Shown here piece by piece: positions 11,138-26,454 of a DNA stretch of 32,000 nucleotides; positions within the stretch are counted from its first letter, which is position 1; each line of letters opens with the position of its first letter. The notes beneath the pieces were generated by a model. The model searched no databases and was not told the origin of the DNA. It was given only the letters and a program-made list of their open reading frames with translations. The DNA comes from Alkalilimnicola ehrlichii MLHE-1 (GTDB lineage: Bacteria > Pseudomonadota > Gammaproteobacteria > Nitrococcales > Halorhodospiraceae), in contig NC_008340.1 of NCBI RefSeq assembly GCF_000014785.1, positions 1,380,001-1,412,000 on the forward strand, given 5' to 3'. The position numbers and the translations under genes were made by a program.

Positions 11138-11536
11138 ATGAAGATCGTGAAACTGCAGGATATCATCGGTACCGAGCGCGAGGTCCACGGTGAGGGGTGG
11201 CGCAGCCGCCGGATCCTGCTGAAGAAGGACAAGATGGGCTTTTCTCTGCATGAGACCATCTGGCCCCCCGGTCACGAACTGCGCATGTGGTACAAGAACC
11301 ACCTGGAGGCGGTCTATTGCGTGGCCGGCAACGGCTCCATCGAGGACCTGGAGACTGGCGAGGTCCATGAGCTCTACGATGGCGTCTGCTACGCGCTGGA
11401 CAAGCACGACCGCCATATCCTGCGGGGTGGCACCGAGGAAATGCGGCTGGTCTGTGTCTTCAACCCGCCGGTGACCGGGTTGGAGGTCCACGACGAGGAC
11501 GGGGCTTACTGTCTGGTCGAGGACGACGACGACTGA
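11138..11536 (+). CDS. ectC: L-ectoine synthase
   Basis: [79 protein letters not shown] is the conserved cupin EctC sequence pattern. GGAG RBS upstream. On the opposite strand to ectAB. Confidence 0.95.
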
Positions 11537-11636: not shown

Positions 11637-12959
11637 CTACTGGCTGGAGGCGGCGTCGCGGTTCATGCCCAGCTCCTCCATGGCCGCCACCAGCGCCTGC
11701 TCGATGATCGCCAGGCCCTTCTCCAGGTCCTCGTCGGAGGTGACCAGCGGCGGCAGCAGCTTGAGCACCTCGTCGCGCGGCCCGGAGGTCTCGATGATCA
11801 GCTTGCGCTGGAAGGCGTGCTCGCTGATCTTCTCGGCCAGCTCGGCGTTATCGAAGGCGATGCCCTGCATCATCCCGCGGCCGCGGACCTGACCCGGGGC
11901 CTGCGGGTACTTTTTCAGCAGGCCGGCCAGGAACTCGCGCATCTTCTCGCCCTTGCGCAGGACCTCCTTCTGGAAGCTGTCGTCGCTCCAGAACAGTTCC
12001 AGTGCGCGCTTGGCCGTGACCACGGCGGGGTTGAAGCCGCGGAAGGTGCCGTTGTGCTCACCCGGCTCCCAGATGTCGTGCTCCGGCTTGACCAGCGTGA
12101 TGGACAGGGGCATGCCGTAGCCGCTGAGCGACTTGGAGACGGTGACGACGTCCGGCTTGATGCCGGACTCCTCGAAGCTGAAGTAGGACCCCGCGCGACC
12201 GTTGCCGGCCTGGATGTCGTCCACGATCAGTAGCATGTCGTACTTCTTGCACAGTGCTTCGACCTGGCGCATCCACTCCGCGCAGGCCACATTGAGGCCG
12301 CCCTCGCCCTGGATGGGCTCCATGATGATGGCCGCGGGGTGGTCCACGCCCGAACCCCCATCCTTGAGCATCCGGTCCAGGTAGTCGACGCAGTTGCGCT
12401 CGCTCCCGCCGCGGTTGACGCAGGGGCCGAAGTAGCCGCAGTAGGGCATGGTCTGGCCGTGGGTCAGCGGGATGCCGGCCCCCTTGCGCTTGAACTCGTT
12501 ACCCGTCACCGACAGCGAGCCCAGGGTCATGCCATGGAAGGCGTTGGTAAAGGAGATGACGTCCTCCCGGCCGGTGACCTTGCGCGCGATCTTCAGCGCG
12601 GTCTCGACGGCGTTGGTCCCGGTGGGCCCGGGGAACTGCACCCGGTAGTCCATGCCGCGCGGCTCCAGGATCAGGCGGTGGAAGGTATCCAGGAATTCGG
12701 CGCGGGCCTTGGAGGCCATATCCAGGCTGTGCGTGACGCCGTCGCGCTCGAGGTATTCGATCAGCGCCTTTTTGATCTCCGGGTGGTTGTGCCCGTAGTT
12801 CATGACGCTGGCGCCGGCGAAGAAGTCCAGGTAGGCCTCACCGTCCAGGTTATAGAGGTAGCTGCCCTTCGCAGTGTCGAACACGGTGGGGAAGCTGCGC
12901 ACGTAGGAACGGACGATGGACTCGTGTTCCTCGATCGTGTGCATATAATCGATAGTCAT
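11637..12959 (-). CDS. ectB: diaminobutyrate--2-oxoglutarate transaminase
   Basis: MTIDYMHTIEEHESIVRSYVRSFPTVFDTAKGSYLYNLDGEAYLDFFAGASVMNYGHNHP...ISFTNAFHGMTLGSLSVTGN...LIVDDIQAGNGRAGSYFSFE...VTVSKSLSG is a class III PLP aminotransferase of the EctB type. The ATG at 12959 is preceded by GAGGGA. The 116-codon upstream extension in the ORF track overlaps ectA and is rejected. Confidence 0.95.
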   Translation of the reverse strand: MTIDYMHTIEEHESIVRSYVRSFPTVFDTAKGSYLYNLDGEAYLDFFAGASVMNYGHNHPEIKKALIEYLERDGVTHSLDMASKARAEFLDTFHRLILEPRGMDYRVQFPGPTGTNAVETALKIARKVTGREDVISFTNAFHGMTLGSLSVTGNEFKRKGAGIPLTHGQTMPYCGYFGPCVNRGGSERNCVDYLDRMLKDGGSGVDHPAAIIMEPIQGEGGLNVACAEWMRQVEALCKKYDMLLIVDDIQAGNGRAGSYFSFEESGIKPDVVTVSKSLSGYGMPLSITLVKPEHDIWEPGEHNGTFRGFNPAVVTAKRALELFWSDDSFQKEVLRKGEKMREFLAGLLKKYPQAPGQVRGRGMMQGIAFDNAELAEKISEHAFQRKLIIETSGPRDEVLKLLPPLVTSDEDLEKGLAIIEQALVAAMEELGMNRDAASSQ

Positions 12960-13014
12960 GGTGATCCCTCTGTATGAATGAACCTTGGTTGTCGAGTGCC
13001 CGGCAGCTGCCGGC

Positions 13015-13560
13015 TCAGGCGATGCAGTCGCCGTAGCGCCGCCGGACCTCGTCCGGGTCGAGCGGGCCGATCCGGAAGAGCAGCTCCGCCTCGTGCCCCT
13101 GATCGGGGTGGAAGTGCTCTTCGGTGAAATGCGGGCTTTCGATGTTGTCCACGCCCAGCTCGCGCGCGATGGAGGCGAACAGCGCCCGGGAGGCCTCGTT
13201 GGAGGGCGAGATCGTGGTCTCCAGCAGCGTCGCGCCGCGGGCACCGGGGGCGGCCAGGAAGGCGCGGAGCAGCCGCTTGCCCAGGCCCTTGCCCCGGGCC
13301 GCCGCATCCACGCCCACCTGCCAGAGAAAAATGGAGTCGGGGCGCTTAGGCGGGCGATAACCGATGACGAAACCCACGATCTGGCCGTCCATCTCCGCCA
13401 CCACGCTGGTGTCCGCGAAGTCGGTGGCCATCAACAGGTAAAGATAGCTGGAGTTCAGGTCCAGCACCCCGGAGTCGCGCACCACGCGCCACATGGGGCC
13501 GCCGTCATCAACGGTGGGGGTGCGGATTACAATGCCGTCCGCCGCGTTCTTATCAGACAC
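13015..13560 (-). CDS. ectA: L-2,4-diaminobutyric acid acetyltransferase
   Basis: IVIRTPTVDDGGPMWRVVRDSGVLDLNSSYLYLLMATDFADTSVVAEMDGQIVGFVIGYRPP...LFLWQVGVDAAARGKGLGKRLL is the GNAT pattern of EctA, and the gene is directly upstream of ectB. I prefer the GTG at 13560 (RBS GAGGAGA 5 nt upstream). The ATG at 13659 would add 33 poorly coding-like residues. Confidence 0.88.
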   Translation of the reverse strand: MSDKNAADGIVIRTPTVDDGGPMWRVVRDSGVLDLNSSYLYLLMATDFADTSVVAEMDGQIVGFVIGYRPPKRPDSIFLWQVGVDAAARGKGLGKRLLRAFLAAPGARGATLLETTISPSNEASRALFASIARELGVDNIESPHFTEEHFHPDQGHEAELLFRIGPLDPDEVRRRYGDCIA

Positions 13561-13758
13561 GGGATTCTCCTCGCTGGCTAGCTGGATGCGTGACAGAGAG
13601 CGGGTGTGTGAATGCCCCAGGGCCGACGGGCGGTTTCCGGGCGGGCCCGGGCCGGGCATTCAAGGGATGAATCGGTGTGATTGTTGAGGCCGCCGGTGGT
13701 TGCCGGCTTATTCTGTAGGGCTCGCAAACCGAGTCCTCGTTGCTCCTTTAAGCCCTTC

Positions 13759-14610: not shown

Positions 14611-15600
14611 TCAGGCCCGGGCCAGACAGGCCGCCAGGTCGTCGGCCAGGCGCTCCATCAGCTCGAACCAGGCGTCCGGGCCGGGTTCCAGGGTTGCGCC
14701 CAACGGGTCGAGGACGCCGGCCTCGGCCCCGGTGCCTTCCACCAGGGTGGTCACCAGGCTCGGGCGGAACTGTGGTTCGGCGAAGACGCAGCGGGCACCG
14801 GTATCACGGATGCGCTGGCGGAGTTCTGACAGCCGGCGGGCGCTGGGCTGGCGCTCCGGGCTCACCGTCACCGAACCCACCGGACTGAGGCCGTAATGCG
14901 CCTCGAAGTATTGGTAGGCGTCGTGGAAGACCAGATAGGGAAGCTCAGCCAGCGACGCCAGGCGTTCATGCAGTGACGCATCCAACCGCTCGATCCGCTC
15001 CAGGGTGGCGGCGGCGTTGGCGCGATAGGCCGCGCCGTTGTCCGGGTCGAGGACCGCCAGCCTCTCCGCCAGCGTGTCGATAAACTGGCGCGCGAAGGCC
15101 GGGGAAAGCCACAGGTGAGTGTCGTAGTCCCCGTGGTGGTCGTGGGGCTGGCCATGACCATGGTCATGGTGGTGGTCACTATGGCCGTGGCCATGGGGTT
15201 CGTGGCTGTGATCGTCGTGGTGGTGCGGGTCCCACAGCCCCCCCTCGCGGATCGGGTGCAGGGGGATACCGTCCAGCGCCAGCAGCGTCATCTTCTCCGC
15301 ATCACCGGCCAGGTTGCGCAGCGGCCGCTCCAGGAACCGCTCCAGTTCCGGGCCGACCCAGATGACCAGCTCGGCGTGACGCAGATGCTCTGCCTCCGAC
15401 GGCCGCAGGCTGTAGGTATGTGGCGAGGCGCCACCGGGGAGCAGCAGTTGCGGCTCGGCCACGCCGTCCATGACCGACGCCGTCAGGCTGTGCAGCGGCA
15501 ACAGGCTGGCGACCACCTTTGGCGGCTGCGCCAGGGCACCGATGCTTGTCGTGAGCCCCAGAAGGGCACAGCCAAGCAGGCCGAACAGTTTGCTTTTCAT
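14611..15600 (-). CDS. znuA: zinc ABC transporter substrate-binding protein ZnuA with His-rich loop
   Basis: Signal peptide, then KVVASLLPLHSLTASV...GASPHTYSLRPSE...HLWLSP...LVFHDAYQYFE...VFAEPQF is the cluster A-I SBP pattern. The loop DPHHHDDHSHEPHGHGHSDHHHDHGHGQPHDHHGDYDTH is encoded at 15115-15231. The gene is divergent from zur-znuCB across a Zur box. Confidence 0.92.
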   Translation of the reverse strand: MKSKLFGLLGCALLGLTTSIGALAQPPKVVASLLPLHSLTASVMDGVAEPQLLLPGGASPHTYSLRPSEAEHLRHAELVIWVGPELERFLERPLRNLAGDAEKMTLLALDGIPLHPIREGGLWDPHHHDDHSHEPHGHGHSDHHHDHGHGQPHDHHGDYDTHLWLSPAFARQFIDTLAERLAVLDPDNGAAYRANAAATLERIERLDASLHERLASLAELPYLVFHDAYQYFEAHYGLSPVGSVTVSPERQPSARRLSELRQRIRDTGARCVFAEPQFRPSLVTTLVEGTGAEAGVLDPLGATLEPGPDAWFELMERLADDLAACLARA

Positions 15601-15674: not shown

Positions 15675-15688
15675 AATGTTATAACATT
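15675..15688. promoter_or_regulatory. Zur box (perfect 14-bp palindrome AATGTTATAACATT) in the znuA / zur-znuCB divergent promoter region
   Basis: The perfect palindrome contains the TGTTAT/ATAACA half-sites of Fur-family Zur operators. It lies 34 nt from the zur ATG and 75 nt from the znuA ATG, in the only AT-rich patch of the 121-nt intergenic region, and overlaps TATAAC -10-like hexamers on both strands. Confidence 0.75.
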
Positions 15689-15721: not shown

Positions 15722-16210
15722 ATGAACGAGCCGGGGGTGGTCACCGATTTCCACGACCACGGCCATGACCATGCCGGGTGTCAGCAGGCGGCGCTGCGCC
15801 GGGCCGAGGCGGTCTGTAGGACGAGCGGGGCACGACTCACGCCCCTGCGGCGCCGGGTACTGGAGCTGATCTGGGCGAGCCATGAGCCGGTCAAGGCCTA
15901 CGAATTGCTGGCCCGGCTGCGGGAGGAGCGGGCCAGTGTGGCGCCGCCCACCGTCTACCGGGCCCTGGAGTTCCTGCTCGCGCAGCGGCTGATCCACCGG
16001 CTCGAGTCCCTTAACGCCTACCTGGGCTGCGGCGCCCCGGACCGGCCTCACGCCTGTCAGTTCCTGATCTGTGAGCGGTGCCAGGCGGTGGCGGAGTTGT
16101 CCGATGACGATATCAGTCGGCTCATTGAGCGCAAGGCGCGCGACCTGGGCTTCCAGATGGACCGGCAGACCATTGAACTGACTGGCGTGTGCCCCGCATG
16201 TTTGGCCTGA
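15722..16210 (+). CDS. zur: Fur-family zinc uptake regulator Zur
   Basis: RLTPLRRRVLELIWASHEPVKAYELLARLREE...APPTVYRALEFLLAQRLIHRLESLNAYLGC is a winged helix. Two Cys pairs are present (CQFLICERC and GVCPAC). The position between znuA and znuCB matches the Pseudomonas/Xanthomonas-type locus. Confidence 0.9.
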   Translation: MNEPGVVTDFHDHGHDHAGCQQAALRRAEAVCRTSGARLTPLRRRVLELIWASHEPVKAYELLARLREERASVAPPTVYRALEFLLAQRLIHRLESLNAYLGCGAPDRPHACQFLICERCQAVAELSDDDISRLIERKARDLGFQMDRQTIELTGVCPACLA

Positions 16211-16977
16211 TCCACAATCCGCCCCACGCAGGGCGGCTGCCGGCCGCCGCCACCACCCTGGTGGAGGCCCGGGGGTTGACGGTGCGCCGGGGTGACCAGC
16301 CGGTGCTGTGCAATGTGGATCTGGTGGTGGAGAGCGGACAAGTGGTCACCCTGGTGGGGCCGAATGGCTCCGGAAAATCCACCCTGGTGCAGGTGCTGAC
16401 CGGCGTGATCCGGGATTACCGGGGGCAGGTGGGGCGCCGCACGGGGCTGCGGGTGGGCTACGTGCCGCAGCACTTTCGCATCGACCGCAACCTCCCCATC
16501 ACGGTGCGCCGGTTCATGAAACTGGCGCCGCGGGGCCGCCGGGGCCACTGGGCGGAAGCGGTGGCCGATGCCGGTGTCTCGCAGTTGCTGGACCGGCCCA
16601 TGCAGGGGTTGTCGGGTGGCGAATTGCGGCGGGTGCTGCTGGCCCGGGCACTGCTCTCACGCCCGCATCTGCTGGCGCTGGACGAGCCGGCAGCGGGTCT
16701 GGATCAGCGTGGCCAGGGGGAGCTGTACCGTTTGATCCGCCATGTGCGGGATCGCTACGGCTGCGGCGTGTTGGTGGTCTCCCACGACCTCAACCTGGTG
16801 ATGGCGGCCACCGACCAGGTGCTCTGTCTGAGCGAGGGCCATATCCTGTGCCGTGGGGCGCCGGAATCGGTGCGCGCCCACCCGGAGTACCGGGCGCTGT
16901 TCGGCGCGCACCTGGGGCCGGAGACAGCGGTCTTCCCTCACGCACACGGGCCGGGGGAGGGCTGCACTCATGGATGA
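16189..16977 (+). CDS. znuC: zinc ABC transporter ATP-binding protein ZnuC
   Basis: Walker A GPNGSGKST, signature LSGGELRRVLLARAL, Walker B LLALDEPAAGLD and H-loop VVSHD. Start is uncertain (GTG at 16189 or ATG at 16198); both overlap the zur stop. The 3' end overlaps znuB by 8 nt. Confidence 0.9.
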   Translation: MPRMFGLIHNPPHAGRLPAAATTLVEARGLTVRRGDQPVLCNVDLVVESGQVVTLVGPNGSGKSTLVQVLTGVIRDYRGQVGRRTGLRVGYVPQHFRIDRNLPITVRRFMKLAPRGRRGHWAEAVADAGVSQLLDRPMQGLSGGELRRVLLARALLSRPHLLALDEPAAGLDQRGQGELYRLIRHVRDRYGCGVLVVSHDLNLVMAATDQVLCLSEGHILCRGAPESVRAHPEYRALFGAHLGPETAVFPHAHGPGEGCTHG

Positions 16978-17791
16978 TTTCCTCCTTCGTGCCCTGTTGG
17001 CCGGTTTCGGACTGGCGGCGGTGGCCGGGCCGTTGGGGAGCTTCGTGGTCTGGCGGCGCATGGCCTATTTCGGCGACACCCTGGCCCACTCCGCCCTGCT
17101 GGGGGTGGCCCTGGGCTTTCTCATCGGCCTCAATGTCAATCTCGGGATCTTGCTGGTCTGTGGGGCGCTGGCGGTGCTGTTGGTCGTGCTGCGCAGCCGC
17201 CAGCGGCTGGCTGACGACACCATCCTGGGCATCATGGCGCACAGCACCCTGTCCCTGGGCCTGGTCTCTCTGGCGTTCCTGGAGCACGTTCGGGTGGACC
17301 TGATGGCCTACCTGTTCGGGGATATCCTGGCGGTGGGCCCGACCGAGTTGTGGTGGATCTGGCTGGGTGGGCTGGCGGTACTGGGGGTGTTGGCGCTGAT
17401 CTGGCGTCCCCTGCTCACCATGACCCTGCACGAGGAACTGGCTCGGGCCGAGGGCGTGCCGCTGCTGCCGATGCAGCTGCTGTTCATGGGTCTGATGGCG
17501 GGGGTTATTGCCATTGCCATGAACATCGTCGGTATCCTGCTGGTTACGTCGCTGCTGATCATCCCGGCGGCGACCGCCCGCCTGTTTGCGCGGACGCCGG
17601 AGCAGATGGCGGTACTGGCCTCCCTGCTGGGTTGCCTGGCGGTAGCGGGGGGGCTGCGGGGCTCCTGGAATTGGGATCTGCCCACCGGGCCTGCCATCGT
17701 CGTTACCGCCACCCTGTTGTTCACCCTGGCGATGGCGGCGACCTCCGTCTGGCAGGCACTCAGGGGTGATGGTGGGCGGGTCAATGGCTGA
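16970..17791 (+). CDS. znuB: zinc ABC transporter permease ZnuB
   Basis: MDDFLLRALLAGFGLAAVAGPLGSFVVWRRMAYFGDTLAHSALLGVALG...LLIIPAATARLFARTPEQM is the ABC-3 family permease pattern. I chose the ATG at 16970, since the upstream part of the track ORF is out of family and overlaps znuC. Confidence 0.9.
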   Translation: MDDFLLRALLAGFGLAAVAGPLGSFVVWRRMAYFGDTLAHSALLGVALGFLIGLNVNLGILLVCGALAVLLVVLRSRQRLADDTILGIMAHSTLSLGLVSLAFLEHVRVDLMAYLFGDILAVGPTELWWIWLGGLAVLGVLALIWRPLLTMTLHEELARAEGVPLLPMQLLFMGLMAGVIAIAMNIVGILLVTSLLIIPAATARLFARTPEQMAVLASLLGCLAVAGGLRGSWNWDLPTGPAIVVTATLLFTLAMAATSVWQALRGDGGRVNG

Positions 17792-17818
17792 TGCGTCCGG
17801 CCCGGCGCCGAGCCTCGT

Positions 17819-18634
17819 TCAGTCGGCCGGCCGGGCGTCCTTCAGCCGGTAGAACATGCCCATCTCATTCGGGTCGAGCAGTTCGAGCTCACCCTCCAGG
17901 GTGAGGGCATCGAATGTGAAGGCCAGCCCACGGTCTGTCTTGACCTCCACCACGCTCTCCGGTCCGCCCGGGGCGCAGTAGAAGCAGCTCGGGGTGCTGG
18001 CGCTGAGCAGGAAGTGGCGCTGCCGGTCGCCCTGTTCCAGCGGCATCATGAAGCCCTGGACCCGGACGGTCTGGCCCTCCAGGGCCAGGATGTCGTCGGG
18101 GAACTCGGCGGCCAGCAGGTCCTCCTCCTCCCAGGTCTTCAGGGCGCCGAGCCGGCGCCAACTGAGCACATCGTCGCGCTCCGGCAGCTCACCCTCACCC
18201 ACCTGGTGGTCGCCGTGTTGGTCCGCCTCCTCGCCGCCCACACGCAACCGCAACTCTCCCCGGGCCTCCCCGGGACCGGAGATCTCCAGGGTGTCCTGCC
18301 CGCCGCGTTGGGCTAGCAGCCGGGTGCGGGCAAAGCCGTCGGCGTCGGTACGCGGGGCGGGGTGGGTGATGAGATTGCCCGCGCGGGAGAGCACGGCCAG
18401 CCGCTCGCCCGCGACCGGCGCGCCATCGGCATCGGTAAAGCGGAAGGCCAGGTGGACCTGATCGCCGGCGTCCAGGCTCAGGGCCTCCACCTCGCCGAGT
18501 TCCAGGTTGCCGTCCAGGTAGGCGCTGATCCGCGGCTTGCCGGCGCCGTCCCGGCTGTCATCCGCGCAGCCCACCAGTGCGAGGACGGCCATCAGCGCAA
18601 CCGCAAGGACCTTGCCGGCCATGGTTCGTGGCAT
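17819..18634 (-). CDS. lipoprotein with Ig-like N-terminal module and DUF3299-like C-terminal domain
   Basis: Lipobox in MPRTMAGKVLAVALMAVLALVGCADD. The middle part VHLAFRFTDADGAPVAGERLAVLS...TDADGFARTRLLAQRGGQDTLEISG resembles bacterial Ig-like (Big) domains. The C-terminus WRRLGALKTWEE...FPDDILALEGQTVRVQGFMMPLEQGDRQRHFLLSASTPSCFYCAPGGPESVVEVK fits my recollection of the DUF3299 pattern. Start at 18634 (RBS GAGGGGG); 18679 and 18622 are alternatives. Confidence 0.7.
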   Translation of the reverse strand: MPRTMAGKVLAVALMAVLALVGCADDSRDGAGKPRISAYLDGNLELGEVEALSLDAGDQVHLAFRFTDADGAPVAGERLAVLSRAGNLITHPAPRTDADGFARTRLLAQRGGQDTLEISGPGEARGELRLRVGGEEADQHGDHQVGEGELPERDDVLSWRRLGALKTWEEEDLLAAEFPDDILALEGQTVRVQGFMMPLEQGDRQRHFLLSASTPSCFYCAPGGPESVVEVKTDRGLAFTFDALTLEGELELLDPNEMGMFYRLKDARPAD

Positions 18635-18722
18635 CGGGTTCCCCCTCGTCGTGCGGCCTGAGCCCTCGGAGTATGCCATCTCGCCGCGCCGGGTGCCCGA
18701 GCGGCCGGTCCGGCGCCGACGG

Positions 18723-20129
18723 CTACCGCTCAGACAACGTCAGGGCGATGTCGGTTCGATAGGCCTGCCAGGCCGGCAGCAGGGCGGCGACCAGGCCGAT
18801 GCCGGCGGCGATCAGCAGTAGCCAGCCCTCGCTCGGCACCCAGGTCAGGCCGGTCAGCTCCAGCGGCCGGTCGCGGCCGATCCAGCGGCCGATCAACTCG
18901 GCCGACAGGTGGCCGCCGGCAAGGCCCAATAGGGTGCCTGTGAGGGCCAGAAGCTGGCCTTCCAGGAGCACCAGGCCACTCACCAGTCGGGGCGAGGCGC
19001 CGAGACTGCGAATGATCGCGATGTCGTGCCGCCGTTCCCGCAGGGCGTTGTAGAGGCCAATGAAGACGCCCAGGCCGGCGGCCAGCAGCAGCACCCCGCC
19101 GAAGGCCTTCAGGGTGTCCAGGCCGACACCCATCATACTCATGAGGCGCGCGCTCTCGTAGGCCGGAGAGGCGGCCTGCAGGCCGGCCTCGGCGTTGATG
19201 GCGCGGGGCAGTTGCATGGCAGCCAGCGGTGAGCGGTAGCGGACCAGCAGGGCGGTCAGTTCCTGGTCTGCGGTGGCCACATCGTCGTGGCCGGCGCCCG
19301 GCTCCCGGTGGTCATGCCCTTGCCCGGCCGGATGCCCGTGGTCGTGATCCGGGGCCGGCTCGTGGGTGTGAGCCCGGTCGGCCTCATGGTCATGGCCATG
19401 GCCGGCCTCAGGGTGGTCGCTGTGGTCGTGCTCATGGTCGTGCTCATGGTCGTGATCGTGGTCGTGATCGTGGTCGTGATCGTGGTCGTGATCGTGGTCG
19501 TGATCGTGGTCGTCGTCATGGACGTCCCAGACGCTCTGCACCGAGGTCAGGACCAGCCGGTCCATGACCGTGCCGGTGGGGGCCAGTATGCCGACGACGG
19601 TGTAGGGGGCGTAGTCGTGGACATGGCCATGGCCGCCACCCAGGCCGTGGGCGCCGACGATCTCATCGCCGATGGCGAGCCCATGGCGGGCTGCCACCGC
19701 GGATCCGAGGGTGGCCTCCATGGCCTGCTCCCAAAGGCGCCCCTCGGCGAGTTCCCCCCGGTAGAGATCCACGTAGCCCGCGTCCGTGCCCACGATGCGG
19801 TGGCCGCGGTAGTTGTCACCCAGGGCCAGGGGGATGACCTCGCTCACCAGCCGGTGGTCCGCCAGCTCGCGGGCGGTTCGTTCAGGGATGTTGCCGGTGG
19901 GGATGTCCAGGTGATAAACGCTGGACAGGATCAGCTGCATGGGGCTGCCACTGGCGCCCACCACCAGGTCGATACCCTGGGCATCGCGGGTGAACTGGCG
20001 CTCCAGTTGATGGCCGTATAGCAGTAGCAGGGCAATGGTGCCGGTGCCCAGCGCCATCAACAGCAGATTGAGCAGCGCGGGGAGGGGACGGAAGCGCAAC
20101 CAGTTGAGAGTGAGGCGCAGGGCGTTCAT
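18723..20129 (-). CDS. FtsX/MacB-type ABC transporter permease with an 80-residue His/Asp-rich insertion in the periplasmic domain
   Basis: MNALRLTLNWLRFRPLPALLNLLLMALGTGTIALLLL is TM1. A large extracytoplasmic domain follows, then LKAFGGVLLLAAGLGVFIGLYNALRERRHDIAIIRSLGASPRLV...ALLPAWQAYRTDIALTL, an FtsX-type three-TM C-terminal module. The ATG at 20129 overlaps the ATPase stop (ATGA). The His/Asp tract is residues 204-283, encoded at 19281-19520. Confidence 0.85.
   Translation of the reverse strand: MNALRLTLNWLRFRPLPALLNLLLMALGTGTIALLLLYGHQLERQFTRDAQGIDLVVGASGSPMQLILSSVYHLDIPTGNIPERTARELADHRLVSEVIPLALGDNYRGHRIVGTDAGYVDLYRGELAEGRLWEQAMEATLGSAVAARHGLAIGDEIVGAHGLGGGHGHVHDYAPYTVVGILAPTGTVMDRLVLTSVQSVWDVHDDDHDHDHDHDHDHDHDHDHDHDHEHDHEHDHSDHPEAGHGHDHEADRAHTHEPAPDHDHGHPAGQGHDHREPGAGHDDVATADQELTALLVRYRSPLAAMQLPRAINAEAGLQAASPAYESARLMSMMGVGLDTLKAFGGVLLLAAGLGVFIGLYNALRERRHDIAIIRSLGASPRLVSGLVLLEGQLLALTGTLLGLAGGHLSAELIGRWIGRDRPLELTGLTWVPSEGWLLLIAAGIGLVAALLPAWQAYRTDIALTLSER
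19428..19511. repeat. in-frame 12-nt tandem repeat: 2 x GTGCTCATGGTC then 5 x GTGATCGTGGTC (minus strand encodes DHDH x5, DHEH x2)
   Basis: Read directly from the sequence. There are seven contiguous 12-nt units. The five units at 19452-19511 are identical; the two at 19428-19451 are identical to each other and differ from the other five at 3 positions. Confidence 0.95.
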
Positions 20130-20773
20130 GCGGCCACCCTCCCTTCGGCGAGATCCAGCCGCTGGGGCAGCCAGCGGCCCAGGCGGCGGTCGTGGCTGGC
20201 GACCACGAGGGTGGCCGCGCAGGCCTCCGCCTCGTCGCACAGCAGCCGCGCCACCCGCTCGGCGTTGGCCTCGTCCAGGCTGGCGGTGGGCTCGTCGGCG
20301 AGCAGGATGCGCGGCTGATTGACCACCGCGCGGGCGATGGCCACCCGCTGGGCCTGGCCCTGGCTCAGCTCATGAGCACGCCGGTGGGCCAGATCGGCGA
20401 TGTCCAGGCGTTCCAGCGTCGAGTGGACCCGCACCCCGTCCCTGGGGAGTCCGGCCAGGTAGCGGGCCAGTTCCAGGTTGGCGGTTACGGTCAGGGCCGG
20501 CAGCAGATGCAGCCGCTGGAAGACCATGCCGATATGGCGGCCGCGGAAACGGTCGAGCTGGGCCGGCGCCAAGGTGGTCAGGGCCTGCTCCCCCACCCGC
20601 ACCTCCCCGGTCGCCGGCCGCAGCAGGCCGGCCAGCAGGTGCAGCAGCGTGGTCTTGCCGCTGCCCGAAGGGCCCGACAGCCACCATTGCTCACCGGGGC
20701 CGGCGGTCCAGTCGGGGAACCGGATGGGCTTGCCATTGCGGTAGCGGTAGGTCAGTGCCGAGGTCTGCAGCAT
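20126..20773 (-). CDS. ABC transporter ATP-binding protein (MacB/LolD-like partner of the FtsX-type permease)
   Basis: MLQTSALTYRYRNGKPIRF..., Walker A GPSGSGKTT, Q-loop MVFQRLHLLP, signature LSQGQAQRVAIARA, Walker B ILLADEPTASLD and H-loop VASHD. The ATG at 20773 is preceded by AGGAGC. The 138-codon upstream extension in the track ORF runs through the intergenic region and antisense-frame hisI sequence and is rejected. Confidence 0.9.
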   Translation of the reverse strand: MLQTSALTYRYRNGKPIRFPDWTAGPGEQWWLSGPSGSGKTTLLHLLAGLLRPATGEVRVGEQALTTLAPAQLDRFRGRHIGMVFQRLHLLPALTVTANLELARYLAGLPRDGVRVHSTLERLDIADLAHRRAHELSQGQAQRVAIARAVVNQPRILLADEPTASLDEANAERVARLLCDEAEACAATLVVASHDRRLGRWLPQRLDLAEGRVAA

Positions 20774-20818
20774 GGTGCTCCTGCCTGAGGGTAGTGGGCC
20801 ATCGGACGATAGGTTGAT

Positions 20819-20837
20819 AATGTTATGTGATAACGTT
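20819..20837. promoter_or_regulatory. second candidate Zur box AATGTTAT-GTG-ATAACGTT upstream of the ABC ATPase/permease/lipoprotein operon
   Basis: Arms match 7 of 8 as an inverted repeat with a 3-nt spacer, and both arms share sequence with the znuA/zur palindrome. The site lies 46 nt upstream of the ATPase ATG in a locally AT-rich patch (ggttgataatgttatgtgataacgttg), downstream of the hisI stop. Confidence 0.6.
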
Positions 20838-20898
20838 GCGCCCGCAAAGCCGTCCGATCGCTGAAATGGCCAAGGGGCCCGCTCACCGTCGGACCCAC

Positions 20899-21327
20899 TC
20901 AGCGGTGGTAAAGGGTCTCCGGGTCGATCTCCGGCGCCGCGATGACCTCCAGGCCGTCCCCGTCGAGCCGGTTGTAGAAACAGCTGCGGCGGCCGGTGTG
21001 GCAGGCCGGGCCGGTCTGGTCCACCCGCAGCAACAGGGTGTCGCCGTCGCAGTCCAGGCGTAGCTCCACCAGTCGCTGCACCTGACCCGAGCTCTCCCCC
21101 TTGCGCCAGAGGCTGCGCCGGGAGCGGGAGTAATAGCACACCCGCCCGGTGCGCAAGGTCTCCTCCAGCGCCTCGCGATTCATCCACGCCATCATCAGCA
21201 CCTCGCCGGAGTCGTGCTGCTGGGCAATGGCGGGGAGCAGCCCCTGCGCATTCCAGGGCAGGGCCGCGAGCACGGCGGGGAGATCCCGGCGGGTGCCGGG
21301 GCGGGCCTTCTCCAGATCCTTGAACAT
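20899..21327 (-). CDS. hisI: phosphoribosyl-AMP cyclohydrolase (monofunctional HisI)
   Basis: LPWNAQGLLPAIAQQHDSGEVLMMAWMNREALEETLRTGRVCYYSRSRRSLWRKGESSGQVQRLVELRLDCDGDTLLLRVDQTGPACHTGRRSCFY is the conserved HisI pattern. The ATG at 21327 is 2 nt after the stop of the upstream gene. The track ORF N-terminal extension is rejected. Confidence 0.9.
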   Translation of the reverse strand: MFKDLEKARPGTRRDLPAVLAALPWNAQGLLPAIAQQHDSGEVLMMAWMNREALEETLRTGRVCYYSRSRRSLWRKGESSGQVQRLVELRLDCDGDTLLLRVDQTGPACHTGRRSCFYNRLDGDGLEVIAAPEIDPETLYHR

Positions 21328-21329
21328 GG

Positions 21330-21956
21330 TCAGCGTTCTTCCAGGGCGGTTCTCAGGTGGTCGGTGATCTGCGGGAGCAGTTCGGCCAGGGCCCGGTTGG
21401 CGGCCTTGGCGCCGGCCACCGGGTGGCGCCGTTCGGCGGTCACCTCGGCGTGGAAACGGCGGGTGGTGAGCACCTCGCCGGCCTCGCTGTCCAGCAGCTG
21501 GATGCGCAATGTTAACACCACCCGGCCGGCGTCCTCGTCGTGCTCGAAGCGGTGTTCCAGGCGTTTCAGCTCCGTGTGCAGGCGCAAGGGGGCGTCGACC
21601 ACGGTGGGGCCGTGAATCACCTGGCGGAACGGGCCGTCGTGCTCCAGCACTGCGACCAGCGCCGGAGTGAGCATCCGCGCCGGGGGCTCCACCCACTGGT
21701 GGTGGGCGAAACGTTGCAGTTCCCAGTCATCGCGGCGGTAGCGCATGGCACTGCTGGTGTAGCCGGGCGCCGCCTGGGTTGCCATCACCCGCACGGCGCC
21801 CGCCAGGGGTTCGGATCCGCCCGGGGCCTCGCTGGGCGCCCAGGTCAGGCTGTAGGTACGCGGCGACTCGGCCGGGCCCGGCAACGCGAGGCCGCAGGCG
21901 TTCAGGCTGAGGGCCAGGGTCAGGGCGGCAATCAGGGCCGTCAGGCAGCGGGTCAT
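21330..21956 (-). CDS. ABC-type transport auxiliary lipoprotein (PqiC/DUF330-like)
   Basis: Lipobox in MTRCLTALIAALTLALSLNACG. Its ~200-aa size and its position directly after an MlaD/MCE gene are typical of PqiC-like components, as is the ...YSL...W...P pattern. This is a family-level call only. Confidence 0.7.
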   Translation of the reverse strand: MTRCLTALIAALTLALSLNACGLALPGPAESPRTYSLTWAPSEAPGGSEPLAGAVRVMATQAAPGYTSSAMRYRRDDWELQRFAHHQWVEPPARMLTPALVAVLEHDGPFRQVIHGPTVVDAPLRLHTELKRLEHRFEHDEDAGRVVLTLRIQLLDSEAGEVLTTRRFHAEVTAERRHPVAGAKAANRALAELLPQITDHLRTALEER

Positions 21957-21957
21957 G

Positions 21958-22890
21958 TCAGCGCGTCTCCTCTCCGGGGCCCGGGGCGATGGGTTGGCGG
22001 CCGTAGATCAGCATCTGCGGCTCGTCGCTGAAGTCCTCCAGGGTCCGTTCCAGATCCTGTGACAACCGGCGCATCTCGTACATCAGGGTGCCCAGTTCGG
22101 GGATCAGGGTCTGATTGACATCGATAAGGGTGGTCTCGCCCCGGCTGGCCAGGGCGTCCAGGGTGTCACCGGTCCGGCCCAGGTCGTCGGCCAGCCGCGC
22201 CCAGCGCGCCAGGGTGTCGTCGAGCCGGTCCATGCTCTCCGGCAGCCGCGCGGCGGCCTCATTGCCCTGGTCGAGCAGTTGGTTGAACCGAACCATGGTC
22301 TGGTCCAGGTCCTCGCTGCCCTCGGCCAGGTTGGCGACCAGCACGTTGGCGTTCTGGAGCAGCCGGGCCACGCGCTCGCGATTCTCCTCGCGCAGGAGGT
22401 CGCGCACCTCGTCGGCCACCACCCGCATCACACCCAAAGCCTCGTCCACCGTCTGCTCCAGGCGGCTGCCGAAGGAGGGGACGGTGCGGAGGGCGGGCAG
22501 GTCATCGCCGGCGCGCGGTTGCGGCGTGACGGGGTCGGTGGTGCTGCCACTAAGCTCGATGAAGGAGATCCCGGTCAACCCCTGGGAACGGAGCGTGGCC
22601 ACGGTCTCCCGGCCGATGGGGACCCGCTCCTCGACGGAGATGACGATGCGGACCTCGTCCGGATGCCGGGGGTTGAGGGTGATGGCCTGGACCCGGCCCA
22701 CGTCCACGCCGCGGTAACGAACGGGGGCGCTGACATTGAGCCCGGCCACCGACTCATCCATGTAGACGGCATAGTCGGTATGAGGCTGGGTCCGGATGTC
22801 GCCACCGAGATAGAGCCCGGCGCCGATGATGGCCAGGGTGAGCAGGATGACGAACAGCCCAACCAGGGCGTAGCTCACGCGGGTTTCCAT
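21958..22890 (-). CDS. MlaD/MCE-domain protein (substrate-binding component of an MCE-type ABC transporter)
   Basis: METRVSYALVGLFVILLTLAIIGAGLYLG is a TM anchor. YAVYMDESVAGLNVSAPVRYRGVDVGRVQAITLNP...VRIVISVEERVPIGRETVATLRSQGLTGISFIELSG is an MCE domain, followed by a long helical C-terminus. I chose the ATG at 22890. Confidence 0.85.
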   Translation of the reverse strand: METRVSYALVGLFVILLTLAIIGAGLYLGGDIRTQPHTDYAVYMDESVAGLNVSAPVRYRGVDVGRVQAITLNPRHPDEVRIVISVEERVPIGRETVATLRSQGLTGISFIELSGSTTDPVTPQPRAGDDLPALRTVPSFGSRLEQTVDEALGVMRVVADEVRDLLREENRERVARLLQNANVLVANLAEGSEDLDQTMVRFNQLLDQGNEAAARLPESMDRLDDTLARWARLADDLGRTGDTLDALASRGETTLIDVNQTLIPELGTLMYEMRRLSQDLERTLEDFSDEPQMLIYGRQPIAPGPGEETR

Positions 22891-22891
22891 G

Positions 22892-23665
22892 TCAGCGGTC
22901 CCTCCAGGCGGCGGTGCGCGATCCACCGAAGTAGGCCTTGATCAGCGGGTGGTCATTGCGCGCAAGCTGCTCGATGGGCTGCACGGCCAGGACCCGGCGG
23001 TCGCCCAGAAAGGCCACCCGGTGGGTGGTGGCCCAAAGGGCATCCATGTCGTGGGTGACCATGATAACCGTAAGCCCCAGCAGCTTGTGCAATTCCGCGA
23101 TCAGTTCGTCAAAGGCGCCGGCACTGACCGGGTCCAGTCCGGCGGTGGGCTCGTCGAGAAAGAGCAGCTCCGGGTCCAACGCCAGGGCGCGGGCCAGGGC
23201 GGCGCGCTTCACCATGCCGCCGCTCAGTTCGCTGGGGTAAAGGTGAGCCGCATCCAGCGGGAACCCCGCAAGTTGGATCTTCAGCATCGCCAGGTCCTCG
23301 ACCGTGGCGGCATCGAACCGGGTGTGTTCCCAGAGCGGCAGGCTGACGTTCTCCTTGACGGTGAGCCCGGTAAACAGCGCCCCCTGTTGGAAGAGCACGC
23401 CCATGCGCTGGCGCAGGGCCTTCTCCTCGCCCCGACCGAGGGACCGGGTGGGGGTCCCCAGCAGGTGGATCTCCCCGGCCTGGGGGCGGTGCAACAACAG
23501 CATGCTGCGCAGCAATACCGTCTTGCCCGAGCCGCTGCCGCCCACCAGGCCGAGGATCTCGCCCCGCCGGACCTGCAGATCCAGGTCCTGGTGCACCGTG
23601 GTACTGCCGAAGCGGTTTTCCAGGCCGGAGACCGCCACCGCGATGTCGCCCGGGATAGCGCTCAT
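22892..23665 (-). CDS. ABC transporter ATP-binding protein (MlaF-like)
   Basis: Walker A GGSGSGKTVLL, Q-loop GVLFQQGALF, signature LSGGMVKRAALARAL, Walker B LLFLDEPTAGLDP and H-loop MVTHD. The ATG at 23665 overlaps the permease stop (ATGA). The upstream extension of the track ORF is rejected. Confidence 0.9.
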   Translation of the reverse strand: MSAIPGDIAVAVSGLENRFGSTTVHQDLDLQVRRGEILGLVGGSGSGKTVLLRSMLLLHRPQAGEIHLLGTPTRSLGRGEEKALRQRMGVLFQQGALFTGLTVKENVSLPLWEHTRFDAATVEDLAMLKIQLAGFPLDAAHLYPSELSGGMVKRAALARALALDPELLFLDEPTAGLDPVSAGAFDELIAELHKLLGLTVIMVTHDMDALWATTHRVAFLGDRRVLAVQPIEQLARNDHPLIKAYFGGSRTAAWRDR

Positions 23666-24795
23666 AGCCCCACCAGGTTGAACAGGATGGAGAAGACGGC
23701 GTCGGTGACAATGACCAGGAAGATGGCCTGCACCACCGTGATGGTGGTGGCTCGGCCGACGCTCTCGGCACTGCCCTTGACCCGCATCCCCTGGAAGCAG
23801 GCGATGCCGACGATGATCAGTGCGAACACCGGCGCTTTGACGAGGCCGACCCAGAGGTGGGAGGTGGCGATGGCCTCCGGCAGGCGGTTGATAAAGTCGT
23901 GCATGGCCACGCCGAACATCAGGTCGGCCACCAGCATGCCGCCGAGAATGCCCAGGACGTCGGCATAGATGGTGAGCAACGGCAGCACCACCATCAGGGC
24001 CATCAGCCGCGGCAGGATCAGCATGTCGAAGGGGCTGATGCCCAGGGTACGCAGGGCGTCGATCTCCTCGGTGATCTTCATAGTGCCCAGTTGTGCCGCC
24101 CACGAGGAGCCGGTGCGCCCGGCCACCACGATGGCGGTGAGCATGGGGGCCATCTCCCGCAGCATAGTCACGCTGACCAGCTCCACCAGGAAGATGTTGG
24201 CGCCGTAACGCTCCAGGGTGTCACCGCCCTGGTACGCGATCACCAGGCCGGTGAGAAAGGCGAGCAGGCCGATGATCGGCAGCGCCTGGACCCCGGCCTT
24301 CTGGATCTCCGCGGAGAGCTGTTTCCAGCGAATCGTCCAAGGGCGGAGGAGGCGGGGCAGGGCCTCCAGGGCGATCTCCCCGATGAACGCCAGGAACGCC
24401 CAGAAGTGCCCGAGCCGGATCACCGTCTGCCGGCCCAGGCGCTCCAAGGGCCCCGGCGGCGGCGGGGGCGGGCGGCGTTCACTGACCGCACGCTCGGTGA
24501 AGGCGAGCAGGCCGTCCATGTGCTCCGGGCGCTCCTCCCCCAGCCTCACGCTGTCGCCGCGCTCGCGCAGTCGCTCCTGCAGCCGGTGCAACTGCCGGGC
24601 ACCGGTCAGGTCCAGCCTGCCCATGGCGCTGGCATCCAGGGTCCAGCCCCCGGTTCGTGGCGGTGGCAATGTGCGCAGGTCCTGGCCGGCCAACCGGGTC
24701 AGGCCCGTGCGGGTCCAGTCACCGCTGCATTGGATGAGCCCTCGGACCTCATCCCAACTCAGCCCGGCCGTTTGTGCTTGCATGTCCCTGGTCAC
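23662..24795 (-). CDS. MlaE-family ABC transporter permease with N-terminal STAS-like extension
   Basis: The C-terminal ~260 aa (LPIIGLLAFLTGLVIAYQG...REMAPMLTAIVVAGRTGSSWAAQLGTMKITEEIDALRTLGISPF...GMRVKGSAESVGRATTITVVQAIFLVIV) is the MlaE pattern. The N-terminal ~110 aa (CSGDWTRTGL...LDLTGARQLHRLQERL) looks like an anti-sigma-antagonist/STAS fold, followed by RRPPPPPPGP. Start is uncertain (GTG at 24795 or ATG at 24783). Confidence 0.85.
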   Translation of the reverse strand: MTRDMQAQTAGLSWDEVRGLIQCSGDWTRTGLTRLAGQDLRTLPPPRTGGWTLDASAMGRLDLTGARQLHRLQERLRERGDSVRLGEERPEHMDGLLAFTERAVSERRPPPPPPGPLERLGRQTVIRLGHFWAFLAFIGEIALEALPRLLRPWTIRWKQLSAEIQKAGVQALPIIGLLAFLTGLVIAYQGGDTLERYGANIFLVELVSVTMLREMAPMLTAIVVAGRTGSSWAAQLGTMKITEEIDALRTLGISPFDMLILPRLMALMVVLPLLTIYADVLGILGGMLVADLMFGVAMHDFINRLPEAIATSHLWVGLVKAPVFALIIVGIACFQGMRVKGSAESVGRATTITVVQAIFLVIVTDAVFSILFNLVGL

Positions 24796-24912: not shown

Positions 24913-26454
24913 GTGAGCAACGGCAGTGATGCCATGGAGACACAGGCAGAGTTACTTGCGGCGCTGCGGAACCCCCGGGTCTACCCCTGGCCGGCGGAAG
25001 GCGTGGAGGTCATAGAGACCCACATCTCCACCGTTTTTCTGGCTGGAGACCATGTGCTGAAGATCAAAAAGCCGCTGGATCTGGGCTTTCTGGACTTTAG
25101 CACCCTGGAGCGACGGGCCTGGTGCTGCGAGGAAGAGGTGCGTCTGAACAGCCGGCTCGCGCCCGATTGGTATCTGCGCGCGGTGCCCATAACCGGCCGT
25201 GCCGACGCGCCGGCGCTGGAGGGTGACGGCGAGCCGCTGGAGTGGGGGGTGCTGATGCGCCGTTTCCCCCAGTCGGCCCTGATGGATGCCCGGCTCGAGC
25301 GCGGAGAACTGCCGGTGACGGTCATGGAGGACCTGGCGCGGGTGGTGGCCGAGTTCCATGCCGAGATCCCCGGGGCGGGGCCGGATACCGATTACGGCTC
25401 GGTGGATTCGGTGCTCGCGCCCATGCTCCAGAATTTCGAGCAGCTGCGGGGGTTGGAGGCGGCCGGGGCCGACCCGGCCGCGTTGGACGCCCTGGAGGCC
25501 TGGACCCAGGCGCAGGGGGATGAACTGGAAGAGCTGATAGACAGCCGGTTCCAGGGCGGATTTGTGCGCGAGTGCCACGGGGACCTGCACCTGGGTAACA
25601 TCGCCTGGCATGAGGGCCAGGTGATTGTCTTTGACGCCATCGAGTTCGAGCCCTACCTGCGCTGGATCGACGTCGCCAACGAGGTGGCGTTTGTGATCAT
25701 GGACCTGGACCACCGCGGCGCCAGTGATCACCGCCACCGGTTCCTGAACGCCTACCTCGAACACACCGGCGACTACGGCATGGTCCGCCTGCTGCGCTTC
25801 TATGCGGCCTATCGGGCCATGGTGCGCGCCAAGATCAACGGCTTCATGGCCAGCCAGGCGGAGGCGGGCAGCGATGCCCGCCAGGCGGCGCGCCAGCGGG
25901 TGACCGACTACATGGCCCTGGCCCAGCGCTACACCCAGCTTCGCCGCCCCGAGCTGGTCATCACCCATGGCCTGTCCGGGGCCGGCAAGACCCGCGTGGC
26001 CGGTGAGCTGGTGGCCGCCGAGGGCCATCTGCGCCTGCGCTCGGACGTGGAGCGCAAGCGGTTGTTCGGCCTGAGCCCGGATGCGCGCCGGGACGATGAG
26101 CCCGAGCAGGGGTTGTACACCGCTGAGGCCACCGAGCGTACCTACAGTCATCTGGAAGGATTGGCCCGGGAGATGCTGGAGGCCGGCTGGTCGGTGGTGG
26201 TGGACGCCGCCTTCCTCGACCCCCGGCACCGGCAGGCCTTCCGTGACCTGGCTGAGGAGTTGGAGTGCGACTTCCGCATCCTCGCCGTGCAGGCCCGGCC
26301 GGAGGTGCTGCGGGAGCGGGTCAAGGCCCGTGCTGATGCCGGTGGCGATGCCTCCGACGCCACCCTCACCGTCCTCGAGCACCAGCTGGCGGACTACGAG
26401 CCGCTGAGCGAAGCCGAGGCGGCGGTGGCGGAGGTGGTCCGAACGGACGGTTGA
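24913..26454 (+). CDS. bifunctional aminoglycoside-phosphotransferase-like (protein-kinase-fold) / P-loop ATP-binding protein, 513 aa
   Basis: The N-terminal half (ETHISTVFLAGDHVLKIKKP..., VRECHGDLHLGNIAW...VFDAIEF) has the APH/choline-kinase Brenner-type HGDLHxxN motif. The C-terminal half has Walker A GLSGAGKT and VVVDAAF, a Walker B-like motif. GTG start at 24913 with a GAGG RBS; ATG at 24934 is an alternative. Confidence 0.8.
   Translation: MSNGSDAMETQAELLAALRNPRVYPWPAEGVEVIETHISTVFLAGDHVLKIKKPLDLGFLDFSTLERRAWCCEEEVRLNSRLAPDWYLRAVPITGRADAPALEGDGEPLEWGVLMRRFPQSALMDARLERGELPVTVMEDLARVVAEFHAEIPGAGPDTDYGSVDSVLAPMLQNFEQLRGLEAAGADPAALDALEAWTQAQGDELEELIDSRFQGGFVRECHGDLHLGNIAWHEGQVIVFDAIEFEPYLRWIDVANEVAFVIMDLDHRGASDHRHRFLNAYLEHTGDYGMVRLLRFYAAYRAMVRAKINGFMASQAEAGSDARQAARQRVTDYMALAQRYTQLRRPELVITHGLSGAGKTRVAGELVAAEGHLRLRSDVERKRLFGLSPDARRDDEPEQGLYTAEATERTYSHLEGLAREMLEAGWSVVVDAAFLDPRHRQAFRDLAEELECDFRILAVQARPEVLRERVKARADAGGDASDATLTVLEHQLADYEPLSEAEAAVAEVVRTDG

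Follow-up and report, generated by a model that had tools for sequence, protein, structure and literature searches.

A candidate Zur-repressed type VII ABC operon, lacking a ZrgA gene and carrying a His-rich permease insert, beside the znu genes of Alkalilimnicola ehrlichii MLHE-1

The window analyzed here, a 32 kb stretch of the Alkalilimnicola ehrlichii MLHE-1 genome (G+C 68%) to which all coordinates refer, contains a three-gene ATP-binding cassette (ABC) operon adjoining the zinc uptake genes znuA and zur-znuCB. Domains were assigned by Pfam and NCBIfam profile searches, judged against the model cut-offs. All on the minus strand, the genes encode an ABC ATPase of 215 aa (20126-20773; Pfam ABC_tran, E = 1.3e-34), a permease of 468 aa (18723-20129; Pfam MacB_PCD, 50.3 bits, and FtsX, 47.2 bits, both above their cut-offs) and a lipoprotein of 271 aa (17819-18634; Pfam DUF3299, 27.9 bits, cut-off 22), so that every domain expected for the three proteins was recovered. 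An ATGA overlap joins the ATPase stop codon to the permease start. The operon sits between hisI (20899-21300) on one side and the convergent znuB on the other, with nothing between, and only 27 nt separate znuB from the lipoprotein gene. The coordinates, co-directional arrangement and ATGA coupling set out in an earlier prediction made from the sequence of this locus (hereafter the original prediction) were confirmed.

The ATPase has the Walker A (GPSGSGKT), signature (LSQGQ) and Walker B (LLADEP) motifs, and its nearest NCBIfam models were FtsE, LolD and DevA, all below their cut-offs. The AlphaFold2 (AF2) model of the permease (predicted local distance difference test, pLDDT, 72) contained transmembrane helices at residues 15-50, 337-364, 380-418 and 432-458 plus a periplasmic domain, and Foldseek placed it closest to MacB, LolC/E, HrtB, YtrF and FtsX (E down to 2e-15, identity of at most 16%). 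By profile and modelled fold the ATPase-permease pair is assigned to the type VII ABC systems (MacB/FtsX superfamily), as originally proposed. A housekeeping LolC/E identity was rejected, as the permease reached 35.4 bits with the NCBIfam lolCE model (TIGR02212; cut-off 362) and 15-18 bits with the LolE models (cut-offs 439-540). A MacAB-TolC pump was also rejected: the nucleotide-binding domain is encoded by a separate gene, and neither an HlyD-type gene in the operon nor any HlyD-type or other membrane-fusion-protein gene in 80 related genome loci was found; the window does have two HlyD genes, at 3991-5115 and 28982-30238, but each is immediately followed by a large resistance-nodulation-division (RND)-type or RND-like gene. 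Nor is this an importer of the ZnuABC type (Cluster A-I, dependent on a substrate-binding protein), given that the permease had no ABC-3 match and that the ABC-3 and ZnuA domains belong to the neighboring znu genes.

A characterized relative occurs in Pseudomonas aeruginosa, whose locus (L081; locus numbers are given throughout with the prefix L) was recovered through a fragment of PDB 4hsp, which is PA4066 according to the literature. The ATPase is 40% identical to PA4064 (BLASTP, E = 1e-40), the two halves of the permease are 36% and 34% identical to PA4065 (E = 9e-31 and 1e-13; about 35%), and the C-terminal domain of the lipoprotein model matched 4hsp (Foldseek E = 3.4e-4, TM-score 0.51). 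Because of these matches the locus is, on sequence grounds, a homologue of the PA4064-PA4066 core, in agreement with the kinship to PA4063-PA4066 that had been suggested. The permease is 97% identical to its counterpart in another A. ehrlichii strain.

A Zur-box-like inverted repeat, AATGTTAT-GTG-ATAACGTT (AATGTTATGTGATAACGTT; 20819-20837), with an 8-3-8 arrangement, was located 45-46 nt before the ATPase ATG, where it had been reported at 46 nt. A second Zur-like site, the perfect 14-nt palindrome AATGTTATAACATT (15675-15688; 7-0-7), lies between the divergent znuA and zur-znuCB. With up to three mismatches allowed, the AATGTTATGTGATAACGTT pattern matched once in the 32 kb (0.01 expected by chance), and AATGTTATAACATT, with up to two, matched once in the window (0 expected). 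Both palindromes have arms too short for the seed or length limits of an inverted-repeat tool, which missed them, and were verified by pattern search instead. The arms AATGTTAT/ATAAC(A/G)TT are common to both sites, as had been noted, although their spacing differs, and a single Fur-family dimer should not read the two palindromes in the same register. Scores were computed against what we take to be the gamma-proteobacterial Zur and the Fur consensus. The 20819-20837 site reached 17/23 for Zur, the maximum in the window on both strands, and the znuA/zur palindrome ranked second (15/23); the Fur score of the former was 12/19, a level reached elsewhere in the window 15 times.

Within diverged intergenic DNA, Alkalispirillum mobile (L084), which shares the gene order, keeps the core AACGTTATCACATAACAT of the box and an exact copy of the 14-nt znuA/zur palindrome. 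A scan of the 80 loci and the window-derived segment (up to three mismatches) gave 13 box matches, seven of them 597-800 nt upstream of the permease start and so just ahead of the ATPase gene; six of these seven fell at -692 to -800. The matches ahead of the ATPase gene stem from gamma-, beta- and alphaproteobacteria, and six other proteobacterial loci have a similar box at the same relative position. Since the box is unique in the window, is its best Zur match, is kept in Alkalispirillum and recurs ahead of ATPase genes, the putative Zur control of the operon is well supported at the sequence level, and the original view of the palindrome as a credible Zur box holds. The box probably overlaps the -10 region, an assignment of -35 and -10 elements that we infer, because a promoter and terminator consensus scan of 17600-21000 found nothing. 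For Bacteroidota loci, a search for enriched 8-mers in 260 nt of sequence preceding each ATPase gene returned AT-rich noise only; the zinc linkage in that phylum rests on the neighboring Fur-family and COG0523 genes described below.

The permease carries a His/Asp tract in its periplasmic domain. Residues 202-281 (nt 19287-19526) include 28 His, 22 Asp and 6 Glu in 80 residues, the same His count as first reported. The conserved H204 is followed by a variable insert (residues 205-291; H204 and insert, 19257-19520, minus strand) of 87 residues, 27 of them His and 31 Asp or Glu, which is predicted to be disordered (AF2 pLDDT below 50 for residues 207-285). A 12-nt tandem repeat of 8.6 copies (19423-19525; Tandem Repeats Finder) encodes a (His-Asp)n run, and because this run is 16 residues (48 nt) shorter in another A. 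ehrlichii strain (protein P0001), slippage may tune the length of the loop. The additional His patch noted upstream of the tract, GAHGLGGGHGHVHDY (residues 159-173; 19611-19655, minus strand), was found as described and contains H161 and H171; most of it was modelled as a loop between strands, with low confidence at residues 165-167, as well as at residues 70-77 around H73 and D75.

The permease family is large (4882 matches scored), and an alignment of 202 sequences was made from the query, the top 120 proteins, the 80 genome loci and PA4065. Three residues, H161, H171 and H204, were invariant (202/202, PA4065 included), and they were present too in a second PA4065-type permease (L086), the only usable one of the extra PA4066-type loci, L085 and L087 being frameshift-prone assemblies uninformative for the permease. 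D75 was kept in 201/202 sequences, H407 in the third transmembrane helix in 198/202 and H73 in 176/202, and none of these three is conserved in the PA4065 type. The positions of LolF aligned with H161, H171 and H204 are not His, in an alignment that is weak. The segment H204-T292 ranged from 19 to 140 residues (median 39.5), with at least 8 His in 78/202 sequences, at least 15 in 43/202 and at least 25 in 15/202; the query has 27. The repeat units of the insert vary by lineage (HD, HE, HDHK, DHDHG and others) and the carriers of His-rich inserts span Pseudomonadota, Bacteroidota and Rhodothermota, which is why the His-rich insert probably arose many times at one hotspot. The His-rich permease loop had been regarded as a distinct architecture, a claim that this comparison narrows: the locus does differ from the two studied systems, but it is not unique, as inserts with at least 8 His occur at the same point in 78 of the 202 relatives, from several phyla.

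The lipoprotein has the same length as, and is 100% identical to, a public A. ehrlichii MLHE-1 protein, and carries the lipobox LVG-C23, with Cys23 at nt 18566-18568. It had been described as an Ig-like module joined to a DUF3299-like C-terminal domain with a CFYC motif, and both parts were recovered: DUF3299 scored above the Pfam cut-off, and the Ig-like part was weak by Pfam (Big_1, 23.6 bits, under the cut-off of 34.9) but backed by the AF2 model (pLDDT 84.7), in which a beta-sandwich at residues 35-132 (nt 18239-18532) matched intimin/invasin Ig domains by Foldseek. A low-confidence linker precedes the DUF3299/OB-like domain at residues ~150-271 (nt 17822-18187), where the motif reads C217-F-Y-C220 (nt 17975-17986). 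All 130 DUF3299 sequences compared keep the first Cys; the second ligand position is C or H at i+3 in this branch (C-x-x-C in 80/90, C-x-x-H in 9/90) versus H at i+2 in the PA4066 group (C-x-H). Within the subfamily of the lipoprotein the CxxC does not vary. The Ig-like domain does appear to have been gained by the DUF3299 partner, as proposed, within a small clade: the Ig-extended form is rare, with about 9 protein clusters from relatives resembling Ectothiorhodospiraceae, and N-terminally extended DUF3299 proteins were found in 5 cases among 81 segments (the 80 loci and the window). A single-chain permease-Ig-DUF3299 fusion of 683 aa was encoded in two independent metagenome samples (L082 and L083; 5001-7052 in each) and lies in matching synteny in both; the insert of this relative is His-poor. 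In the fused chain the former signal peptide would become a fifth transmembrane helix, which is topologically consistent. Synteny and the natural fusion together support the lipoprotein as the likely partner of the permease.

The ATPase-permease-DUF3299 core was found in about 75 of the 80 related loci, with the DUF3299-like open reading frame (ORF) adjoining the permease gene in most. The survey of homologues suggested along with the original prediction returned the three features sought, a His tract in part of the family, a DUF3299-like ORF in 75/80 loci and Zur-type boxes ahead of the ATPase gene in proteobacterial loci. ZrgA/PA4063 (PF10986) was not detected at E<=0.01 when phmmer was run with PA4063 on ORFs from all six frames of the window and of the 80 loci, a search whose single-sequence sensitivity is limited; the operon has no room for a ZrgA gene inside, and Pfam searches of ten candidate upstream ORFs gave no ZrgA but MerC, a histidine kinase, a pseudouridine synthase and a weak, sub-threshold DUF2946. 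The statement that no separate His-rich periplasmic protein gene is present accords with the lack of a ZrgA/PA4063 match in the window. The idea that the His module was grafted onto the permease stood in part: the loop does lie on the permease and no ZrgA was found in the window, but the loop does not appear to be a one-for-one ZrgA replacement, because none of the 80 loci has ZrgA yet 55 of them have a His-poor insert (25/80 His-rich). Judged by these loci, the system is a common ZrgA-less branch of the family and not a single graft. A separate small His-rich secreted protein compensating for a His-poor insert was considered and rejected, with such an ORF in 3/55 His-poor and 1/25 His-rich loci.

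A Fur-family or COG0523 gene was found within 3.5 kb in 26 of the 80 related loci. Recurrent neighbors were COG0523 GTPases (20 loci), TonB-dependent receptors (20 loci) and Fur-family genes (17 loci), the last often co-directional and immediately downstream. In 19 Bacteroidota loci the ATPase gene is preceded by a co-directional gene for a MerC-like membrane protein (e.g. L044 4541-5017, L005, L010, L013, L031 and L033). This MerC-family protein could be the real transmembrane metal path in those Bacteroidota operons. Several further arrangements were observed among the loci. In L009, L010, L013, L024, L031, L033, L042, L043, L048, L052, L070 and L078 a co-directional Fur-family gene comes after the DUF3299 gene and seems to belong to the operon; some Pedobacter loci (L048 and L078) have three tandem DUF3299 paralogues; and in L008 (7215-7499) and five other loci (ORF cluster 17) the permease and DUF3299 genes flank one for a secreted protein of ~95 aa that is rich in His and Cys and has no Pfam match.

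On the other side of the lipoprotein gene, the znuA-zur-znuCB neighborhood was as originally described, with Pfam and NCBIfam in agreement. It comprises znuA (14611-15600, minus strand; Pfam ZnuA E = 6.6e-69, NCBIfam ZnuA 282.9 bits, cut-off 268) and, on the plus strand, zur, for a Fur-family zinc uptake regulator (15722-16210; Pfam FUR, best NCBIfam model Zur with 119 bits, below the cut-off of 167), znuC (16189-16977; NCBIfam ZnuC 251.6 bits, below the cut-off of 306) and znuB (16970-17791; Pfam ABC-3, NCBIfam ZnuB 283.3 bits, just under the cut-off of 284). The synteny of znuA-zur-znuCB with the operon is kept in three lineages. The znuA product bears a long His-rich loop of its own (HHHDDHSHEPHGHGHSDHHHDHGHGQPHDHHGDYDTH), and His-rich tracts are therefore present in both adjoining zinc systems. 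The hisI gene directly upstream of the Zur box comes after an MlaE/MlaF/MlaD-like operon that includes an ABC_trans_aux lipoprotein gene and has the same orientation (20899-24795, minus strand), an order kept in Alkalispirillum (L084).

Elsewhere in the window, the ectoine synthase gene ectC (11138-11536, plus strand) converges on the opposite-strand pair ectA-ectB (11637-13659, minus strand); ectABC is usually a co-directional operon. Two plus-strand ORFs with coding-like codon bias and no Pfam match at E<=1e-5 (2497-3867, 456 aa; 1781-2188, 135 aa) lie upstream of an RND efflux pair (HlyD-type, 3991-5115; AcrB-type, 5122-8232). A protein of 513 aa (24913-26454, plus strand) combines an APH-type phosphotransferase domain with an AAA_33/Zeta-toxin-like kinase domain, and its gene adjoins one for a GCS2-type glutamate-cysteine ligase (26491-27858), a pair kept in L082. 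A search of the whole window at the Rfam gathering threshold yielded no RNA family.

On balance, we read the locus as a Zur-repressed operon for a ZrgA-less type VII ABC system of the Zrg/PA4063-PA4066 family that would serve zinc acquisition during zinc starvation, alongside znuA and zur-znuCB. The observations described above concern homology, the architecture of the domains, patterns of residue conservation, gene order and the retention of the operator; from them we infer how Zur and metal would be bound, how the partners would interact and which way the metal would move. When zinc is replete, Zur would sit on the 8-3-8 palindrome over the likely -10 region, and when it is scarce the three genes would be transcribed, as the conserved site suggests. 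The permease dimer would expose a periplasmic domain with H161, H171 and H204, whose conservation points to a role in metal binding. By analogy, the disordered 87-residue His/Asp tract after H204 may act as a low-affinity, high-capacity Zn(II)-collecting antenna on the permease, a job matching that of the His-rich loops which ZrgA/PA4063 and ZnuA carry on separate proteins. The membrane-anchored DUF3299 lipoprotein, to judge by synteny and the natural fusion, would be an obligate partner, its universal Cys, here in a CxxC motif, exchanging metal with the permease and its Ig-like domain acting as a spacer. ATP hydrolysis by the LolD/FtsE-like ATPase would drive a periplasmic conformational cycle by mechanotransmission. 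The substrate would be the metal ion itself and not a metallophore, and the final crossing of the inner membrane would take place through the permease or after hand-off to another route.

The invariant His, the recurrent His-rich hotspot, the universal Cys and the natural fusion are the reasons for placing a metal ion as ligand and for docking DUF3299 on the permease; these features favor a metal ion rather than a metallophore, without thereby choosing among import, hand-off and buffering. More tentatively, the permease periplasmic domain may itself be the zinc receptor, handling the bare metal ion through the invariant His triad, the optional His antenna and the DUF3299 Cys, with neither a substrate-binding protein nor a membrane-fusion adaptor; we hold this narrower proposal to be possible and somewhat doubtful.

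Several points weigh against zinc acquisition by this operon. Mechanotransmission in the periplasm is the mode of action of type VII ABC proteins, and we know of no transmembrane substrate path in any of them, so that import would be without structural precedent. The His loop would be dispensable for the core function, because 55 of the 80 ZrgA-less loci do without a His-rich insert. The fusion-bearing relative L082 has no visible box, its ATPase gene starting 32 nt after hisI. In P. aeruginosa, deletion of PA4065 left cellular zinc unchanged and raised cobalt and pyochelin, and PA4066 was without evident zinc binding (PMC11481552).

In one alternative, a metallophore or metal-chelator complex would be exported or periplasmically expelled by the system, and the His-rich loop and DUF3299 would only modulate activity or sense metal. 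The permease is homologous to PA4065, whose mutant accumulates cobalt and pyochelin and which, with PA4064, has been proposed to export pyochelin-cobalt (PMC11481552), the MacB fold is that of exporters and extractors, and a TonB-dependent receptor near 20/80 loci would fit chelator traffic. We nevertheless judge this explanation unlikely: no membrane-fusion-protein or TolC-type partner occurs in the 80 loci, no metallophore biosynthesis genes occur in the window, the family is present in many phyla that do not make pyochelin, and the invariant His triad, recurrent His-rich inserts and universal partner Cys point to direct handling of metal ions. That the operon instead specifies a periplasmic zinc buffer or metallochaperone, storing zinc on the His tract or supplying envelope zinc enzymes or ZnuA, with ATP releasing the metal and no transport across the inner membrane, would suit the long, disordered, high-capacity loop, the place of the operon beside znuABC, the established periplasmic action of type VII ABC proteins, and the micromolar sites and proposed chaperone role of PA4063 (PMC8561739). 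Most relatives, however, have no high-capacity loop, and the ability of zrgABC to sustain growth of Vibrio cholerae without znuABC (PMC9820375) would be difficult to account for were ZnuA the sole recipient of the zinc, which makes a pure buffer quite improbable.

A last alternative denies any zinc link: the palindrome would be a Fur box, another operator or a chance occurrence, the proteins would perform an FtsX-type envelope task, and the His/Asp tract would reflect a haloalkaliphile proteome. The Fur score of 12/19, the failure of the consensus scan to show a promoter and the boxless L082 locus lend it something, but the window has 15 Fur matches at that level, while no site in it exceeds the 17/23 reached for Zur. 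The arms shared with the znuA/zur palindrome, the retention of both sites in Alkalispirillum, the recurrence of zinc-linked neighbors (Zur/Fur family, COG0523) across phyla and the homology to operons experimentally shown to be zinc-regulated make this the explanation to which we give very little credence.

The Zrg and PA4063-PA4066 systems are part of the zinc-starvation response of important pathogens, and, in keeping with the original prediction's view of their mechanism as unsettled, published work on them is at odds between a zinc importer (PMC9820375) and a metallophore exporter for pyochelin-cobalt (PMC11481552). The present locus and its relatives offer testable handles, namely the three invariant His, the His-tract hotspot, the universal DUF3299 Cys and the permease-partner fusion, and, for reconstitution, no version of the system is simpler than the three-gene one without ZrgA. 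If zinc acquisition is indeed its function, type VII ABC proteins would gain a new class of substrate, metal ions; if the permease domain is the zinc receptor, an undescribed mode of ABC-driven metal acquisition, common to thousands of bacteria in several phyla, would be at hand and the dispute between import and export by PA4063-PA4066/Zrg would be settled. The kind of system is known; the literature searched, the coverage of which was incomplete, gave no account of its ZrgA-less branch with a permease-borne His-rich insert, a CxxC DUF3299 and, in A. ehrlichii, an Ig-like extension, nor of any ZrgB/PA4065-type permease bearing a His-rich loop.

Compared with P. aeruginosa PA4063-PA4066, the A. 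ehrlichii operon shows the same gene order (ATPase, permease, DUF3299), the same three periplasmic His, a Zur-type operator upstream and a DUF3299 fold matching 4hsp. It differs in that P. aeruginosa has the ZrgA-like PA4063, whereas no PA4063/ZrgA gene was found in the A. ehrlichii window; in the insert, which has 30 residues and 1 His in PA4065 and 87 residues and 27 His in A. ehrlichii; in H73, D75 and H407 of the A. ehrlichii branch, which are R, G and Y in PA4065; and in the DUF3299 protein, which has CxxC in place of the CxH of PA4066 and, unlike PA4066, is a lipoprotein with an added Ig-like domain. According to published descriptions, Vibrio ZrgABCDE is a Zur-regulated backup to ZnuABC that also pairs an ATPase with an FtsX-type permease and has ZrgE as its DUF3299 protein (PMC9817125, PMC9820375), and V. 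cholerae genetics favor zinc import by Zrg, as zrgABC supports growth without znuABC (PMC9820375); Vibrio, however, also has ZrgA, a His-rich periplasmic binder needed for function, and ZrgD (DUF2607), neither of which was found at the A. ehrlichii operon. With MacB, LolCDE, HrtBA and FtsEX the system has in common the four-helix transmembrane fold, the Porter/Sabre-type periplasmic domain and the type of ATPase, but identity to the solved members is at most 16% and there is no MacA adaptor, TolC link or partner of the LolA/EnvC type. Finally, ZnuA and ZrgA/PA4063 carry loops that are likewise disordered, rich in His, Asp and Glu, periplasmic and found in zinc-starvation proteins; those loops sit on soluble binding proteins, whereas the A. 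ehrlichii loop is part of an ABC membrane permease.

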